This document shows, one piece after another, positions 29,543 to 37,088 of a stretch of DNA of 64,000 nucleotides. A program made the position numbers and the translations under genes. Source of the stretch: Pirellulales bacterium. Lineage in GTDB: Bacteria > Planctomycetota > Planctomycetia > Pirellulales > PALSA-1355. Under the pieces are notes generated by a model, which did no database searches, was not told where the DNA came from, and saw nothing but the letters and a program-made list of their open reading frames with translations. The stretch covers positions 224,001-288,000 of the forward strand of contig CAVTBU010000009.1 of NCBI GenBank assembly GCA_963733035.1. Reading direction: 5' to 3'. Position 1 is the stretch's first letter, and every line of letters begins with the position of its first letter.

Positions 29543-31522
29543 TTACTCGCCCGCTTGGGGGGACACTTTCGTTGGCAACTGCCAGCACTCGTCGAAGAAC
29601 CCCGCAGCGACGACACGCCCCGGGTGCTCGGCGTCGGGAGCAAGGCGGACATCAACAATCGCCCAATCTCCCAGCTTCGGATTCTGCAGCGAATTCGTTC
29701 GATCGTGAGCCTCGCGATGCGTGGGCCCGCTGTTCAGGACTAAGTATTTCCGTGGATTGAGCGGGTTTGGATAGATCGCCAGCGGAATGCAGATATCCCG
29801 GTCGCAACGATGCCCGCCCAGCGTGAAGTCGGCATCCACCCAACGGATGGGAAGCCGGCTTGCGACTTCGCGCAAAATGCTGTTCGACCGCGGATCGCCC
29901 CAGCAGATCAGGTGGTATTTCTCACAATCGCTCGGCTTCAGGTCCACGTCACGTACGGTGCGCGGCTCGCCACGGTAGACGTTCTTCCAGCGCTTGCGAA
30001 AGTGCTCGAGTTCGAACGCAACCCAGCGATCAATCTGGGGAGACGAGTCGCCGGTAGGAACGACAACCAAGAACGGCTCGAGAAAGATGTCGTCGATCGG
30101 ACCCTGCAAGCCGGGGCGTTTGCGGAGCTGGCCGCCGCCGAGCGGCCGCGCCGGGACCCACGTTTCCCCGTCTCGCTCGTACACGAGTGGCCCGTCGCTG
30201 ACGAGCACGGCCTGACCATCGATCATGAGTTGTTTGGGCTGCTCGGGGGGCTCCAAGCGCAGTTTGCGAATGTTTCTGGTGACCACGACCAGCCGATCGT
30301 CATCGGTGTAGCGAGTGTCGATACGACTGTCCTGCCAGTGCCGGTCAAGTTCCAGTGCCTCGATCCAATGCATGCGCGGGTAGCGGAGGGTTTGCGTCTG
30401 CAAGGAGAGCTGGCGCAAGGCCGGATTGCGGCCTTCCGCGACGGCCGCGTGCATCCGCTGCATGACCTCGGCCAACACGGCCGGATCGTATTTGTGTCCC
30501 ATGCCCGGCCCGATCAAATGCACCAGCTCGTGTCCCTCCTGACGGAAGGCCTCGGCCATGAAGTCGGCGGCGTCCTTTTGTTTGTCGACTTCGCCGCTGT
30601 AGGCCACAACCGGCAGGTTAAACAAATTGCGCACGTATTTCGGCACGTCGTACACGTTCCACATTTTCTGTTCGTAGGTAGGCGGATATTGCTCAGGCGA
30701 GAGCTTCTGATAGCGTTTCACGTCGACAAATCCAGCCCCCGCGTGCACGGCGGCAAACTGATCGGCGTAGTGGGCGCCAATGTGCCACGCGCCGGCGCCA
30801 CCCATCGAGAAACCCATCAACACAATCCGGTCTCGATCGATCGGATAGCTATCGCAGACCGAGTCGATCGCTTCGAACACGTCGATTTCCGCCGTGCTCT
30901 TCCAGCCGATGCAACTGCGGCCAAATGGGTGCAGCACGATGGCATCGTCCGGTCGAATCTGACCCGGCTTGCTGCTGCGTTCCGCAATAAACTGGAGGTC
31001 GGCCAGTTTGTCGTTGCGGCCGTGCAACCAGACGTATAGCGGCACGGGTTTCGACAAGTCGAGATCCGCGGGAATCACCAGTCCATAGGGTTGAGGCGAG
31101 CCGTCGACCTTCGATCGGTAGCCACGAACAATCGTCCCGCTTTGGGTTGCCCAAGGCGACTGCCCCGCCGCCAAGTCTTCAAGCCTTCGTTGGGCGGTCG
31201 ACAGTAAATCTCCCGCAGTCTCGATGTCCTGTGGTTTGAAGAACTCCGATTCTTCCAAGGCGAAGCGCAGGGCCTTGAGATAAATATCGACGTCGATAAC
31301 GAGCGAAGCCATTGCGTCTGATAGATCGCCCGCCCGCAGCGCGTCACGCTGCTTTTCGAGTCGTTCAAGGTGCTTTGTCAGTCGTTGGCGATCGTCAGCC
31401 GGAACTTCGATCCCCGCCGGGGGCAAATGTCGTTGAATCGGCTGCCAGGGTTCGGCCGCACACCGTGGCGCGGCGACGATCGCGCACACCGTCAGTAACA
31501 GGGCCTTGAGTCGTGCCGTCAT
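29543..31522 (-). CDS. Secreted prolyl-oligopeptidase-like alpha/beta hydrolase
   Basis: Signal peptide, YRSKVDGSPQPYGL, VWLHGR, GFSMGG, YSGEVD, GMGH. Confidence 0.85.
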   Translation of the reverse strand: MTARLKALLLTVCAIVAAPRCAAEPWQPIQRHLPPAGIEVPADDRQRLTKHLERLEKQRDALRAGDLSDAMASLVIDVDIYLKALRFALEESEFFKPQDIETAGDLLSTAQRRLEDLAAGQSPWATQSGTIVRGYRSKVDGSPQPYGLVIPADLDLSKPVPLYVWLHGRNDKLADLQFIAERSSKPGQIRPDDAIVLHPFGRSCIGWKSTAEIDVFEAIDSVCDSYPIDRDRIVLMGFSMGGAGAWHIGAHYADQFAAVHAGAGFVDVKRYQKLSPEQYPPTYEQKMWNVYDVPKYVRNLFNLPVVAYSGEVDKQKDAADFMAEAFRQEGHELVHLIGPGMGHKYDPAVLAEVMQRMHAAVAEGRNPALRQLSLQTQTLRYPRMHWIEALELDRHWQDSRIDTRYTDDDRLVVVTRNIRKLRLEPPEQPKQLMIDGQAVLVSDGPLVYERDGETWVPARPLGGGQLRKRPGLQGPIDDIFLEPFLVVVPTGDSSPQIDRWVAFELEHFRKRWKNVYRGEPRTVRDVDLKPSDCEKYHLICWGDPRSNSILREVASRLPIRWVDADFTLGGHRCDRDICIPLAIYPNPLNPRKYLVLNSGPTHREAHDRTNSLQNPKLGDWAIVDVRLAPDAEHPGRVVAAGFFDECWQLPTKVSPQAGE

Positions 31523-31541
31523 GGATAACCTCACCGAATCT

Positions 31542-31618: not shown

Positions 31619-32965
31619 TCAGACGACCTTGGTCAGGCCGGGGACTGGAAGCTGATACATTCCATTGGAATCGGGCAGGGACTTCGGCGTGGCGTCGAAG
31701 GAAAATTCTTCCGGCGCCAGGCTGATGTTCGAGGCAAGGGCATCATCCCAACTGATCTCCTTGCCCGAGTAGGTGCACATCCGGCCAAGAATCGCGGTCA
31801 TCGTGCTCTTAGCGCCGTACTCGGCTTCGTTGTACGGCTGACCGTTGCGGATGCTGGCGAACAGGTCGTCGTGCTCGACCTGGTAAGGGTCGGGCCGGTC
31901 GCCACGGTAGCGCCACGAGTCGCTGCCGGTGGGGTTGATCCTAGCGCCGCTGATGTCTGCGGTGCCATTGGTGCCAATGGCGTGCTCCGAAACGCTATTC
32001 CAGCAGCCTGGGATATGACGGCACTGGCTGAACATCCGCGAGCCGTCGGCATACTCGAACTCGACGGCATGATGGTCGAACGTCTCGCCGTAGTCTTTTC
32101 CCTTGCGGACCTGGCAACCGCCCATGCCGTTGGCTTTGACGGGAAAGCCGTTCTTGAGCCAATTGCCGACGTCCATGTTGTGGATGTGCTGCTCGACGAT
32201 GTGATCGCCACAAATCCAGGCGAAGTAGTACCAATTGCGCATCTGGTATTCCATCTCGGTCAGCTTGTGGCCGAACTTCGCTTCGAGGTCCTCGCGGGTG
32301 TGAACCCAGGGAGTCGAGCCGTTCCAGTAGACTCGAGTGGCCACGATGTCGCCGATAGCGCCATCCTGCAATCGTTTGATGGTTTCCAGGTACTGGGCCT
32401 GATGGCGGCGCTGCAGACCGACGCCGACGGATAGATTCTTCTTTTTCGACTCCTCGGCGGCTGCCAACACCTTGCGAACGCCGGGAGCGTCGGTGGCCAC
32501 CGGCTTCTCCATGAACACGTGCTTGCCGGCGTTCACCGCGGCTTCGAAGTGATAAGGGCGGAAGCCCGGCGGCGTGGCGAGGATGACCAGGTCCGGGCCA
32601 GCGTCCAGCGCCTGTTGATATGCATCGAAACCGATAAAGCGACGTTCCTTGGGCACGTCGAGCCGATCCTTGATCGATCCCTGCTTTTCGAGCTGCTGAT
32701 AGCTTCCCTCGAGTCGATCTTCGAAAACGTCGGCCATGGCGATCAGCTTCACCTTGCCCGAGGTGCGCAGCGCCTGGTTTGTCGCCCCAGTGCCGCGTCC
32801 GCCGCAACCAATCAGCGCGATCTTGATCTCGTCATCGCCGGCCGCGTAGGCGCTTCTGGCGATCGAAAGGTTCGTGGCCAGCGCGCCACCCACGATAGCG
32901 GCCGTCGAGCCTTTCAGAAAATCGCGCCGGGCTACCGGCGAGTCGCTTCGGGAGGGTTCGCTCAT
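31619..32965 (-). CDS. Tat-exported Gfo/Idh/MocA oxidoreductase
   Basis: ARRDFLK Tat motif, IGCGGRG, ATPPGFR, HVFMEKP, EQHIHNMD. Confidence 0.92.
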   Translation of the reverse strand: MSEPSRSDSPVARRDFLKGSTAAIVGGALATNLSIARSAYAAGDDEIKIALIGCGGRGTGATNQALRTSGKVKLIAMADVFEDRLEGSYQQLEKQGSIKDRLDVPKERRFIGFDAYQQALDAGPDLVILATPPGFRPYHFEAAVNAGKHVFMEKPVATDAPGVRKVLAAAEESKKKNLSVGVGLQRRHQAQYLETIKRLQDGAIGDIVATRVYWNGSTPWVHTREDLEAKFGHKLTEMEYQMRNWYYFAWICGDHIVEQHIHNMDVGNWLKNGFPVKANGMGGCQVRKGKDYGETFDHHAVEFEYADGSRMFSQCRHIPGCWNSVSEHAIGTNGTADISGARINPTGSDSWRYRGDRPDPYQVEHDDLFASIRNGQPYNEAEYGAKSTMTAILGRMCTYSGKEISWDDALASNISLAPEEFSFDATPKSLPDSNGMYQLPVPGLTKVV

Positions 32966-33036
32966 GGTCGGGTCTCCAATTCCAATGCTGGTAAGGGGGA
33001 ATGTGATGATTGGCCTCATGAAAAGAATGCCGCGGC

Positions 33037-34143
33037 CTACTCGTAGGCGCCGACATCCCATAACTTCGCTTTTTCCTCGGCCGTTGGCGTTTCCAAGGGC
33101 CGAACCACGCGGAAACCAAGAAACAAGGCGTCGGTCAAATACCAAATGCTCTGTGGCAGCTGAGGATCCTGTTGTTTCCAGTCACGGCTCGAACCGCGGC
33201 GAGCGGCGCTGCGGAGCGCTTCAGGATCGTCGTCCCACGACCCGCCGCGCACAGCCTTGGGATAAAGCTTCGTCGCCGCGATCCAGGGATTCAACGTGAC
33301 CTTGCCGGCGAATTGTTCGTAAAAATCGGGCACGTACTGGTCGAGCGTCCACTCGCAAACGTTGCCATGCATGTCGTGCAGTCCCCAGGCATTGGGTTTC
33401 TTGAGGCCGACTCTGTGGTACTTGTCTTCACTGTTGTCGAAATACCAGGCGTATTCACCGAGTTGTTCGACGTCGTCGCCAAACGAGTAAGCGGTTTTCG
33501 ATCCCGCACGGCAGGCATATTCCCATTCGGCTTCGGTCGGCAGGCGGTAGTAGCGGCCGGTCTTCGCGCTTAGCCAGCGGCAATAGCTCTTGGCGGCGTG
33601 CTGCGTCATGCAGATGGCCGGAAAGCCCTCCTTTCCCATGCCAAACGTCATATCCGTGTACGGCTTGGTGGGCCGCGTGTAGGCGTCGGCCATTTTCTCG
33701 CGATCGGTCGGCTCGACCTTGTTCAACTCGCGGCGTTGAATGTCGAGGTTGAACGTCCAGATTTCGTACTCGTTCCAGGTGACCTCGCACTTGCCCATCC
33801 AGAAGGGCTTGATTTCGACCTCGTGCTGAGGGCCTTCATCCTCGCCTCGTCCTTCCTCGTCGTCGGGACTGCCCATCGTGAATGTGCCACCGGGAATGGG
33901 AACCATCTCGAACGTGACGTCACCGTTGACGACTACCTCGGTATACGGCTTCATGGCGTCGGGTGTGGCAGCGTCTGAATCTTTGACTTCCACCTTGGGC
34001 AGCTTGGCACCATCGACCGCCACGGTGGTCGATTCTTCGCCGCGGGCCCGGCCGCTTGGCAGAACCACAAGTGCCAATCCAAGCATGAAACATCCAACCG
34101 GCAACATTTGCTTTGCCGGCAGTGTGGGAACTACGCTAGGCAT
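33037..34143 (-). CDS. SUMF1/FGE-sulfatase-fold protein, secreted, lacking the FGE catalytic cysteines
   Basis: [57 protein letters not shown]. Confidence 0.9.
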
Positions 34144-34238
34144 AGAGGATCCTTTAGAACAATTAAGTCGGGGCCGCCGCAGACGAACTCTCTCGGTGTG
34201 CCGCAGACGCCAAACCGAGTCGAGAATTGCGAAACGCG

Positions 34239-35291
34239 ATGAATCGAGTGCTGGGTGCCTTGTTGTGGGGAGTCGTCCTCGCTCTGAGCGGAGCGGCTGG
34301 TGCCGCCGGGCCGGAGGCCGAATTGGAGCGATTCCAATCCACTCAAATCGAGATGGGGGTGCCTTTTAAGATCATATTGTACGCACCCGACAAACTCACT
34401 GCAAAGGGTGCATTGGACGCGGCATTTTCGCGCATCAACAAGTTAAATGCCGTGCTTAGCGATTACGACAGCCAGAGCGAACTCAGCCGCTTGAGCACCG
34501 GCGCACCCACGGCGAAACCCGTGCCGCTGAGCCCCGATTTGTGGACGGTGTTGACCCGATCACAATCGCTGGCCCGGCAAACGGGCGGCGCATTCGACGT
34601 GACCGTCGGTCCCTACATTCGGCTTTGGCGGCGCGCACGCAGGCAAAACCAAATGCCCTCACCCGAGCGAATGGCCGAGGCCGCCGCAGCAGTCGGCCAT
34701 CGCCACCTCGTGCTCGATGCCGAGCGGCACACCGCCCGGCTGCTCGTGCCCCACATGCGGCTCGACTTGGGTGGAATTGCAATGGGCTACGCCGTGGATG
34801 AAGCGCTGGGGGTACTTCGCGAGCGGGGAGTTACACGAGCGCTCGTCGACGCCAGCGGCGATATTGGCGTTGGAGATCCGCCACCGGGAAAGGCCGGCTG
34901 GACGATCGGAGTGGTGCCGCTCTCGGCCGACGGCACACCCACGCGCGAAATCGAACTGGCTGGCGCCGCCATAACAACGTCGGGCGACGCCTTCCAGCAC
35001 GTCGTCATCGACGGCAAGCGCTACTCGCACATCGTCGATCCCCACACCGGCCTAGGGCTGACGGACCAAAGCGGTGTGACCGTGATCGCCAGAGACTGCA
35101 TCACGGCCGACAGTCTTGCAACGACAGTTAGCGTGCTCGGACCGAAAGCCGGACTAAAGCTGGTCGAATCAACACCCGATGCGGCTGCATTCATCGTGCG
35201 GAACGACAACGGCCGGATCGAGATCTTCGAATCACAGCGATTCAGGTCGTTCGAAGTCCCCGAAACAGACGCTCAGCGACCTCGAAAGTAG
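34239..35291 (+). CDS. apbE: FAD:protein FMN transferase
   Basis: [51 protein letters not shown]. Confidence 0.93.
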
Positions 35292-36823
35292 CGCCGCAGG
35301 ATGTAAGCCTGCATCGGACCAGACATCTTCGAGAGTTCGCGGCGAGACAAGAAGCCGTTCTTATCGCGATCAAACGGAATCAGTCGGCGGGCAAGATCGT
35401 CGGAGATCGGGATGCCCCGCTCGGGAAAGCGCGGCCCCACGCCTTGGTCGGTTACCGGCGCGAGCGCGGGCTCTTCGTCATCCAGCGGAATGCCTCCCTC
35501 CAAACCCACAGCAAGTTCGTAGCCGGGCATCTTGGCAATTTCCGCCAGGTCCTCGGGGCGATCGGTGTAGACCTGCACGCCGCAGAGACACATTTCGTCG
35601 GTCGATTGTTCCCCCCATTGAACTTCGCGCGGCGGATGGTGAGGATTCTTGGGATTGTTTTCCGAGTTGTCGTAAATGGCCTGCAGACAAATGACCGACC
35701 CCTTCGGTAACCGCACCGGTTCTGCGAAGCGATAAGTCCCTTGCCAATCGAAGTCCCAGTCCTTGATCCAGATCAGCGGCAACTGTTGGCCGCCGGGGAG
35801 CCGCGGTGACCTTGAATTGCCGCCCCAAATCGTGCATGTGCGGCGAGACGCCCAGCACATTGACGTCGACCGGCAGCGGAACGCACCGCGTTCTCACATC
35901 GCAATGCGCCTTGCCGGCCGGCAGCCGCAGTAGTGGCTGCGTGACGGCAATTCCCGTGACGACTTTCTTCGTCGGCGTCTTGGCAAAGTAGATGCCCACG
36001 CGTGACTGATCGGTCTCGGGCTTGCCGGTGGGATGGTAGTGGACCTGCAAAACCAGATCGCTCCCCTTTTTGAAGTACTTGGCCATTCCGTCGGGAAGAT
36101 GGCGCGTCATGGTGCCGGGCACCCAGGCGCCAAGCCCGCCGGTTGGCTTGACGCCGGCTCCACCGTAAGAGCGATAGCCGGGCTGCCCGTCGCGGCCGTC
36201 GAGTTTCGCGCGGCGTGGTTGGCATCGAGGAACATGACCGCGTGGTGCACCACGCCACGATTGCCGGGCCGGAATTCCGCGGCGCTGATCATGCGATCTT
36301 CGTCAATCGGCATCGGGATGACAAAACAGCGGTAGACGTCGCGGCCATCGGCCGGGATGTTAAAGGGGGTCGGCATCTGCACGATCAAGTCCGGCTCGCC
36401 CAGCTGCCAGCCCTCGTGGAACTCGGGCGGCTCGGGCAAGTGCGTCGGATCGCCTTCGGGCGCTCCCGCGGCCACCCAGCGGTTGATCAGCACCAACTGC
36501 TCATCAGAAAGCCGACGTTCGTCATGAAACTCGATGACTCCGGGCTCGGGTTTCCAAGGAGGCATCCGCCGATCGTGCGTGATCTGCTTGAGAAAACTGG
36601 CCCGTTTTACAGCGTCCTGATACGTGAGCAATGAGAACGGAGCGACTTCGCCGGGACGATGACAAGTCGCGCAGTTTTCCCACAGAATAGGCGCGATGTG
36701 TTTGGAAAACGTGACCGGTTCGGAAGAATCTTCCGTGGCAAAGCCCGGACTCATGAAGCTCCAAACCAAAAAACAACCGAGCAGAGGGCGCAGAGCGAGT
36801 GTCTGCGATCGCGACACCATCAT
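35273..36823 (-). CDS. Cytochrome c-copper type II (PHM/DBH-like) monooxygenase with C-terminal EF-hand-like motif (frameshifts at ~36206 and ~35803)
   Basis: Signal peptide, CATCHRPG, MPPW, VVHHA, LQVHYH, PHMHDLG, WDFDWQ, DEMC, DRDKNGFLSRRE, spread over three frames. Confidence 0.82.
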
Positions 36824-37088
36824 GGCGAGCTGGCTTCCTTCCGTCGTTCCGAAGCGATTGGTTCCGCCTGAGACAAACCGCTGGAATGCCTCCTGCCTTC
36901 CGGCCGCAAAAGGTCGAAGCAACGCGAGGGTTCGCTTCGCAGCAGCGAATGATCTGTTCCACGGAAGGGCGAGGTCAGCCTAACGGATATCCGTCGCCGC
37001 GCAAATCCCTCGATCAGCGGAAACGAGGATTGACTCGTGGATAGCGCGAGTTATGCCGAAACGCGCAATCGCCAACGTGAGGTTCTCG

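Follow-up and report, generated by a model that had tools for sequence, protein, structure and literature searches.

Which protein does a FAD:protein FMN transferase serve when no known substrate is encoded in its genome? This question is raised by a locus of a Pirellulales bacterium (GCA_963733035.1; genome size 6.6 Mb, completeness 92.28 %), which was studied in a stretch of 64,000 nucleotides of contig CAVTBU010000009.1 (forward-strand positions 224,001-288,000; the window). In this locus, a gene for ApbE, the enzyme that moves flavin mononucleotide (FMN) from flavin adenine dinucleotide (FAD) onto exported proteins, lies next to the genes for a secreted protein whose fold is that of formylglycine-generating enzyme (FGE) as well as for a dehydrogenase of the Gfo/Idh/MocA family (Gfo) that carries a signal for twin-arginine translocation (Tat). 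The FGE-fold protein probably belongs to a new family of ApbE substrates that has R-P in its variant motif and a transferase clade dedicated to it, and that serves NAD(P)-type dehydrogenases in the periplasm. A probability of roughly 0.55 is given to the three genes forming a periplasmic redox module with the full mechanism set out below. Flavinylation of the FGE-fold protein at Thr159, taken by itself, is considered likely because of positional homology, gene linkage, and the existence of the dedicated ApbE clade.

The apbE gene (34227-35291, plus strand) stands head-to-head with the gene of the 368-aa FGE-fold protein (33037-34143, minus strand), and a divergent intergenic region of 83 bp (34144-34226) separates the two. 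From the stop codon of the FGE-fold gene, a gap of 71 nt leads to the ATG at 32965 of the dehydrogenase gene (31619-32965, minus strand), which specifies 448 aa. This ATG (MSEPSR...) is most likely the start, since a longer open reading frame (ORF) from 33145 would overlap the upstream FGE-fold gene. A hairpin scan revealed a terminator-like structure on the minus strand directly 3′ of the dehydrogenase stop codon (31582-31547), with a stem of 16 bp followed by a T run; its stem is by far the longest of the seven sites found in the region, where 6.2 were expected. As this structure follows the dehydrogenase stop, the operon consists of two genes, those of the FGE-fold protein and the dehydrogenase. 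All three genes are supported by Pfam, and the arrangement proposed in the original prediction, with apbE divergent from an operon for an FGE-fold protein and a Tat-exported Gfo enzyme, is indeed present. A scan for sigma-70 promoters returned one site against 1.7 expected. Among the sequencing runs listed in a search, there was no RNA run, and seven DNA runs had small shares, the best being 0.27.

The product of apbE matched PF02424 with 239.9 bits (against 25.6) and aligned with 5mgy_H (E 1.4e-37) and 7esa_A (E 1.5e-37), both of which are named FAD:protein FMN transferase. It keeps TSGD and YSH.(V/L)DP, the latter as R-Y-S-H-I-V-D-P in alignment with 5mgy_H; the score with the ApbE equivalog model NF007774 (132.9 bits) stayed below the 498 of that model. 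The N-terminus carries a signal of the Sec type, and the ATG at 34239 is the more likely start. Searches of the genome with PF04205 (FMN_bind), PF03116 (NqrB/RnfD), and PF10029 (DUF2271), in which the positive controls were detected, gave no match, nor did a search with PF12094 (DUF3570) that had no positive control. The absence of a canonical FMN-binding substrate, first remarked on for the vicinity of apbE, thus extends for these four families to the whole genome at the completeness given above. When 41,973 six-frame ORFs were scanned for D-x-x-[ST]-[GS]-A-[ST], 81 matches were obtained, which is the level of chance, and most were located in shadow frames. Pfam analysis of three of the longer motif-bearing ORFs, two of them secreted, yielded a PQQ-like beta-propeller, a DAO-type FAD oxidoreductase, and a secreted protein of 235 aa without assignment, none of which is a known type of substrate. 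The survey in which the substrate families were defined left 4 % of the apbE genomes without a predicted substrate (PMC8238504, main text in part).

The FGE-sulfatase domain PF03781 was detected in the 368-aa protein by profile search (E 8.7e-44). The N-terminus reads as a hydrophobic signal, and residues 1-40 are disordered in the AlphaFold2 (AF2) model; the protein is predicted to be extracytosolic, as is expected of ApbE substrates. The original prediction also held that the catalytic Cys pair after RGGSW was missing. This was borne out: no Cys is present beyond residue 263, and none is invariant across 43 aligned rows, so that the protein should lack the catalytic pair of true FGEs and, judged from its sequence, is not a sulfatase maturase. 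The AF2 model, made with 43 sequences, has a predicted local distance difference test (pLDDT) score of 88.3 and a predicted template modelling (pTM) score of 0.85. In it, the block of residues 154-174, in which the motif discussed below is included, forms a coil after the helix of residues 147-153, with a pLDDT of 85-93. A Foldseek search with the model gave PvdO (5hha) as the best match (E 1.3e-19), followed by FGEs, CalU17, PorK, ToxD, and EgtB; for human FGE the E value was about 3e-17. PvdO was also retrieved by sequence search (E 8.4e-31) and is the closest solved relative. With the NCBIfam model of the PvdO family (NF051459), the window protein reached 135.3 bits, far from the equivalog cut-off of 500. 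The family to which it belongs is large and closely conserved: 7,990 of 8,000 scored candidates matched the window protein at E <= 1e-20, with identities of 63-82 % for the 120 nearest. The mean column identity was 63 % in alignment A1 and 43 % in alignment A2. Searching protein representatives with A2 gave results dominated by very long proteins with multiple FGE repeats, single-stretch matches accounting for 2 of the 150 listed.

The residue to which FMN is proposed to be attached, T159 (codon 33667-33669, minus strand), is the last one of the loop motif D-A-Y-T-R-P-T, which comprises residues 153-159 and is encoded at 33667-33687 on the minus strand. The substrate motif of ApbE is D-x-x-[S/T]-G-A-[S/T] (PMC12052999, in part). 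The window loop departs from this canonical form: the Asp, the T at the fourth position, and the last T are as in the ApbE motif, and G-A is replaced by R-P. A link between the two forms was provided by P0271, a protein in which the FGE-fold domain is fused to a tetrahaem cytochrome. It is 39 % identical to the window protein in BLASTP (E 6e-66), and the 10-residue segment with DAYTRPT aligns without gaps to its DGITGATPPW. Of the 120 database proteins nearest to this tetrahaem-fused protein, for which 5,874 proteins were retrieved at E <= 1e-20, 115 have the canonical D-x-x-[ST]-G-A-[ST] and the other 5 have D-G-I-[ST]-G-P-T. On the strength of this ungapped alignment with a sequence that is canonical in 115 of 120 fused relatives, T159 holds the position of the residue that ApbE flavinylates in the canonical motif. 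The 120 proteins nearest to the window protein all have D-x-x-x-[R/K/M]-P-T; neither the canonical form nor a haem motif was found in any of them.

Conservation of the loop across phyla was followed in an alignment of 42 rows, numbered by the window FGE-fold protein. Position 159 is S or T in all 42 (T in 29, S in 13), 41 rows have D153, and 39 have P158, with a consensus of D-[A/G]-[V/I]-[T/S/A..]-x-[P/A]-[T/S]-x-P-[Y/W/F]. Position 156 is variable (T, S, A, L, V), as would be expected of the weaker position in the known motif. The residues at positions 157-158 differ by lineage, with R-P, G-P, A-P, H-P, and Q-P occurring as well as G-A in a few rows; the forms with G-P and A-P are intermediate between G-A and R-P. 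Conservation of the motif, which the original prediction needed, was thus observed. The form Dxx[ST]RP[ST] had been expected specifically in homologues linked to apbE; it is conserved, but it marks the subfamily as a whole and not just the members adjacent to apbE. Among more distant FGE-fold loci (42 ORFs in 37 loci), the motif was found in neither of its forms, and none of the loci has ApbE. Nor is DAYTRPT wholly an inserted loop, as had been proposed, because PvdO has a shorter loop at this place (5hha, residues about 100-110) with D-G-D-T-R-P-G, in which Gly takes the place of the S/T. As PvdO carries this sequence, the T-R-P core would predate the subfamily that has the S/T. In loci L018 (1415-2482 and 2737-3600) and L019 (8001-8927 and 9185-10285), the FGE-fold gene with the motif is duplicated in tandem. 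Every copy keeps the loop, as DAITRPT and DAITRPS in L018 and as DAITSPS and DGVTAPS in L019.

Linkage of the genes was examined in a set of 77 loci, obtained by scanning one genome per species, of which 40 belong to the subfamily and 37 contain more distant FGE-fold proteins; adjacent Gfo and ApbE genes were counted within the fetched flanks. Of the 40 subfamily loci, 14 have an adjacent ApbE, as against none of the 37 distant ones, and 26 have an adjacent Tat-Gfo homologue. The ApbE-bearing loci are distributed over Planctomycetota, Bacteroidota, Verrucomicrobiota, Acidobacteriota, and Gemmatimonadota. Because ApbE lies next to the FGE-fold gene in L011, L012, and L015, where no Gfo gene is adjacent, it is the FGE-fold protein to which ApbE is linked. 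The subfamily (E <= 1e-40) was found in 40 of 151 evenly sampled Planctomycetota genomes; ApbE is present in 40 of these 40 and in 82 of the 111 others. At least 27 of the 40 have ApbE as a neighbour that diverges from the FGE-fold gene at a distance of up to about 0.5 kb. An arrangement that recurs in this way is far beyond chance, and the linkage, which might have proved to be peculiar to one genome, is conserved. The type of loop matters as well: R-P types account for 10 of the 14 ApbE-bearing loci, whereas apbE is not adjacent in the loci with canonical G-A (L032 and L035). Such a distribution, although the numbers are small, would suit a transferase that co-evolved with the variant site. 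All five genomes with the canonical-motif tetrahaem-fused form and no adjacent ApbE have ApbE elsewhere. Other neighbours of the subfamily gene include xylose-isomerase-like TIM barrels with a Tat signal (7 loci) and 3-keto-disaccharide hydrolases (2 loci), on account of which the module would belong to the periplasmic oxidation of sugars or glycosides.

A phylogenetic tree was made of 55 ApbE domains; 30 of them adjoin an FGE-fold gene, and the other 25 are encoded at different places of the same genomes. The adjoining ApbEs, with one exception (29 of 30), form one group together with a single non-adjacent row, supported by a value of 97 in the Shimodaira-Hasegawa-like approximate likelihood ratio test (SH-aLRT). 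This group spans five phyla and includes the ApbE of the window. The adjacency label changes 3 times on the tree, against a mean of 18.4 after shuffling, and a value as low was not reached in any of 500 shuffles. The exception comes from Pedobacter sp. Hv1 (L014, 10324-11253): its ApbE, on a long branch in another clade, is 26 % identical to that of the window, which suggests that apbE may have been recruited to the FGE-Gfo cluster more than once.

The genome has two ApbE genes. The second (G000:C5:1009825-1010937, or L080:6826-7938, plus strand) specifies a protein with a Tat-like N-terminus (TRREFLTG) that falls in a third, separate clade (SH-aLRT 100, 8 rows) common to related genomes. It is divergent from the gene for a secreted protein of 348 aa in which a cytochrome c′-like CxxCH is located C-terminally. 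Flanking it are two secreted proteins that consist almost wholly of Cys-rich repeats (CC-x-P-x-CC runs, with His/Arg-rich tails), both encoded on the minus strand, at about 68-457 and about 11779-12447 of L080 (G000:C5:1003067-1003456 and 1014778-1015446).

An indication of what the FGE-fold protein may do comes from its relatives with haem-binding motifs. The FGE-fold domain has CxxCH motifs on its N-terminal side in 13 of the 40 loci of the subfamily: one in L008, L009, L016, and L017, two in L007, three in L041, and four in L031-L035, L038, and L046. In L032, the domain is fused to a membrane-anchored tetrahaem cytochrome of the NapC/NirT type (PF03264 + PF03781), and four CxxCH motifs are present in 116 of the 120 nearest relatives of the tetrahaem-fused protein. 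An anchor of the NapC type would connect to the quinone pool, and a flavin placed between a two-electron donor (NAD(P)H) and one-electron haems is a classical arrangement. The fusions with haem c in other lineages point to a function in electron transfer, and the part of an electron acceptor would fit both these fusions and the adjacency of Gfo in 26 of the 40 loci. It had been proposed that DxxTRPT is a variant flavinylation site and that the FGE-fold protein is an electron acceptor; the position of T159, the linkage, and the haem fusions speak for this, while the FMN adduct, the acceptance of R-P by ApbE, and the contact with the dehydrogenase are predictions.

In the mechanism envisaged, the Gfo enzyme would fold around NAD(P) in the cytoplasm, be exported via Tat, and presumably retain its cofactor. 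The FGE-fold protein would be exported via Sec, after which ApbE would move FMN from FAD to Thr159 of D-A-Y-T-R-P-T in the periplasm. Upon oxidation of a sugar or glycoside by the dehydrogenase, the bound NAD(P)H could be reoxidized by hydride transfer to the covalent FMN. The flavin would then turn the two-electron input into one-electron outputs and pass the electrons on, if they flow in this direction. In other lineages they would go to the fused haem-c domains, of which there are one or two, or to a NapC/NirT-type tetrahaem anchor reaching the quinone pool; candidate acceptors for the window protein are a separate cytochrome c, quinone, or O2. A broader reading can be put forward tentatively as possible, namely that FGE-fold modules with covalent FMN are widespread, cross-phylum periplasmic wires, either free, with one or two haems, or with a NapC-type anchor, which recycle the cofactor of Tat-exported NAD(P)-dependent sugar dehydrogenases by passing their electrons to the respiratory chain and are served by an ApbE clade that co-evolved to the R-P site.

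The dehydrogenase matched PF01408 with 50.7 bits (cut-off 24). The twin-arginine signal model TIGR01409 scored 20.6 bits against 16.7, and PF10518, at 20.3 against 22.7, remained just below its cut-off; the motif itself, RRDFLKG, is encoded at 32909-32929 (minus strand). G53, G55, and G58 as well as E153-K154-P155 are invariant in 24 rows, in agreement with GxGxxG and E-K-P. With NF058561, the model of the BT_2158-type glycoside 3-dehydrogenases, 45.8 bits were obtained, the cut-off being 750. The genome has another three close paralogues of the Tat-Gfo gene (L084, G000:C5:2841121-2842599; L085, C10:221997-223304; and L086, C9:138156-139601). They are 54 %, 47 %, and 38 % identical to the window copy, and a Tat signal was detected for one of them. 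The two closest have an ORF for a xylose-isomerase-like TIM barrel in the fetched flank, in one case with a sulfatase nearby as well. None of the three has an FGE-fold gene of its own. As the genome has one motif-bearing FGE-fold gene for all these enzymes, the single FGE-fold protein may serve several dehydrogenases. Prediction of a complex between residues 40-448 of the dehydrogenase (alignment A3) and residues 60-368 of the FGE-fold protein (A2) gave 0.43, 0.02, and 0.02 in three runs, with the controls not folded, and thus speaks neither for nor against a contact.

Several observations weigh against flavinylation of the window protein and against the module as a whole. A flavin on an FGE-fold protein is known from no experiment and no structure, and the relatives found in the PDB (PvdO, FGE, PorK, ToxD, and EgtB) are not listed as flavoproteins. 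The main caution is that the R-P loop could be an old structural feature, since PvdO shares T-R-P without the S/T. The loop also sits in a protein that is conserved throughout, so its conservation alone does not single it out. According to PMC12052999 (in part), in which a mutational study of this motif (Bertsova 2019) is cited, G-to-A and A-to-V substitutions left about 50 % flavinylation, and D-to-A had minor effects. The change of G-A to R-P goes far beyond any substitution given in that part of PMC12052999, and Arg and Pro might block ApbE. The secreted ORF of 235 aa mentioned above contains DQMTGAT and is possibly another substrate of ApbE. The window FGE-fold protein is without haem, and no downstream acceptor was identified for it. 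An adjacent ApbE was not shown for 13 of the 40 Planctomycetota genomes with the subfamily, 4 of which have all their matches elsewhere and 9 of which were partly listed. Finally, related genomes are not independent, so that the counts, which are given without a p-value, overstate significance.

Of the alternatives, the one that survives best accepts the flavin and makes the FGE-fold protein an oxidoreductase in its own right, with a small molecule as its substrate in the way that dihydropyoverdine is the substrate of PvdO. It would share a pathway with the Gfo enzyme but not an interface; the substrate could, for example, be a product or precursor of the Gfo reaction, and enzyme-bound NAD(P)H would not be directly reoxidized. 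PvdO being the closest solved relative, with an NCBIfam family named dihydropyoverdine dehydrogenase, gives this alternative its substance. It can also accommodate L011, L012, and L015, where FGE and ApbE occur without adjacent Gfo, and the presence of a single FGE-fold gene beside three more Tat-Gfo paralogues elsewhere in the genome. It is considered rather unlikely nonetheless, as 26 of 40 loci from different phyla have Gfo directly next door, the NapC-type and other haem-c fusions are more in keeping with an electron conduit than with an enzyme acting alone, and the score with the PvdO model amounts to 135.3 out of the 500 required.

A second alternative leaves the R-P loop unmodified and restricts flavinylation to the G-A forms, the neighbouring ApbE then serving for periplasmic hydrolysis of FAD, supply of non-covalent flavin, or modification of another substrate. 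The distance of R-P from the tested tolerances of the motif, the T-R-P-G of PvdO, and the other secreted ORF with DQMTGAT are all in line with such a view. It would leave unexplained why the last S/T is kept in 120 of 120 relatives of the R-P type and in 42 of 42 cross-phylum rows. Loci of the R-P type, moreover, are those that keep ApbE next door (10 of 14), whereas the canonical G-A loci L032 and L035 have none, and the adjacent ApbEs form one clade, as expected of a transferase that co-evolved with a variant site. This alternative is therefore held to be unlikely.

Flavinylation of the dehydrogenase rather than the FGE-fold protein is highly improbable: its Rossmann P-loop (32780-32809, minus strand) does contain TGAT and hence [ST]GA[ST], but the residue after G-A is never S/T in 25 homologues, most of which have A (as do at least 90 % of 24 rows in column 62), the first position of the motif is not an Asp, and ApbE is linked to the FGE-fold gene without Gfo in L011, L012, and L015, for which reasons the P-loop was rejected as a flavinylation site. 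That the neighbourhood is a coincidence of this one genome is barely credible in view of its presence in five phyla and at least 27 of 40 Planctomycetota genomes, and of the apparently independent recruitment of an ApbE of another clade in L014.

The module with a flavinylated FGE-fold protein resembles known systems in part. Electron-transfer proteins flavinylated by ApbE, such as those with FMN_bind domains (NqrC, RnfG, NosR, and PplA), DUF2271, DUF3570, and variants of Flavodoxin_4 and FMN_red, share with the window protein that they are exported, carry a loop motif running from Asp to S/T, and have apbE in the gene cluster (PMC8238504, PMC11334425, both in part). They are also linked to periplasmic redox enzymes, and their relatives swap modularly with cytochrome c domains, according to the same parts of these texts. 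The window protein differs from them in its FGE/C-type-lectin-like fold, in having R-P for G-A, in its dedicated ApbE clade, and in the proposed Tat-exported NAD(P)-type partner. The NapC/NirT-tetrahaem::FGE-fold fusions of Bacteroidota, annotated as 'SUMF1/EgtB/PvdO family nonheme iron enzyme', have the loop, a downstream Tat-Gfo gene, and an FGE-fold domain 39 % identical to the window protein; unlike it, they have four haems, a membrane anchor, and the motif with G-A, and apbE is not adjacent to them. No characterization of these fusions came up in the literature searched. PvdO shares the Cys-less FGE fold, the periplasmic location, an oxidative role, and T-R-P in the homologous loop; it differs by the Gly at the S/T position and by lacking about 14 residues before the loop. 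We know of no linkage of PvdO to apbE or Gfo. FGE/SUMF1 has the PF03781 domain and the overall fold in common with the window protein, which is without the C-terminal Cys pair; the copper-binding pair of FGE is Cys336/Cys341 in the human enzyme, and the titles 'C336S mutant' and 'C341S mutant' occur among the Foldseek matches. The Tat-exported Gfo/Idh/MocA enzymes (glucose-fructose oxidoreductase and the BT_2158 type) share the Tat signal, the NAD(P) Rossmann fold, and neighbours from sugar pathways. In these enzymes, the bound cofactor is recycled by a second half-reaction on a sugar, whereas in the window module the electrons would be taken up by a flavoprotein of its own.

A literature search retrieved no paper linking flavinylation or ApbE with FGE-fold proteins, though the large gene-cluster tables of the two flavinylation surveys might list the association. 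FGE, sulfatase, Gfo, and NapC are not mentioned in the main texts of PMC8238504 and PMC11334425, nor is PF03781 in the small text supplements of the two surveys. As far as the papers found go, no such flavin carrier has been described. Were the proposal correct, a substrate would be assigned to a genome that has apbE and no match to a known substrate family, as in the 4 % referred to above (PMC8238504, in part). A fold never linked to flavins would join the ApbE substrates and the attachment motif would be widened, which bears on the engineering of flavin tags. It would also mean that the site specificity of ApbE is evolvable and that surveys based on [S/T]-G-A-[S/T] miss whole families of substrates, among them those in certain 'orphan apbE' genomes. 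The module offers a testable answer to the question of how NAD(P)-dependent dehydrogenases shed their electrons outside the cytoplasm, where there is no free NAD pool. The family is large and common in Planctomycetota, Bacteroidota, Verrucomicrobiota, and Acidobacteriota, which are known for the breakdown of polysaccharides, and could matter for carbon turnover.

Further genes flank the module on either side. Right past the operon terminator starts the gene for a secreted alpha/beta-hydrolase of 663 aa (29543-31534, minus strand) with weak matches to Peptidase_S9 and esterases; a weak relative of it is encoded some 4 kb from the module in L023. Beyond apbE lies a gene for a protein with a cytochrome c motif (35531-36883, minus strand), for which Pfam gave only a weak match to Cytochrome_CBB3. 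The C-terminal part of its product presumably resembles copper monooxygenases. An intact homologue of 752 aa is encoded in L068, where it adjoins an FGE-fold paralogue. Compared with this homologue, the window gene is read in frames -1, -3, and -1, indicating two frameshifts, and would be either a pseudogene or the product of an assembly error.

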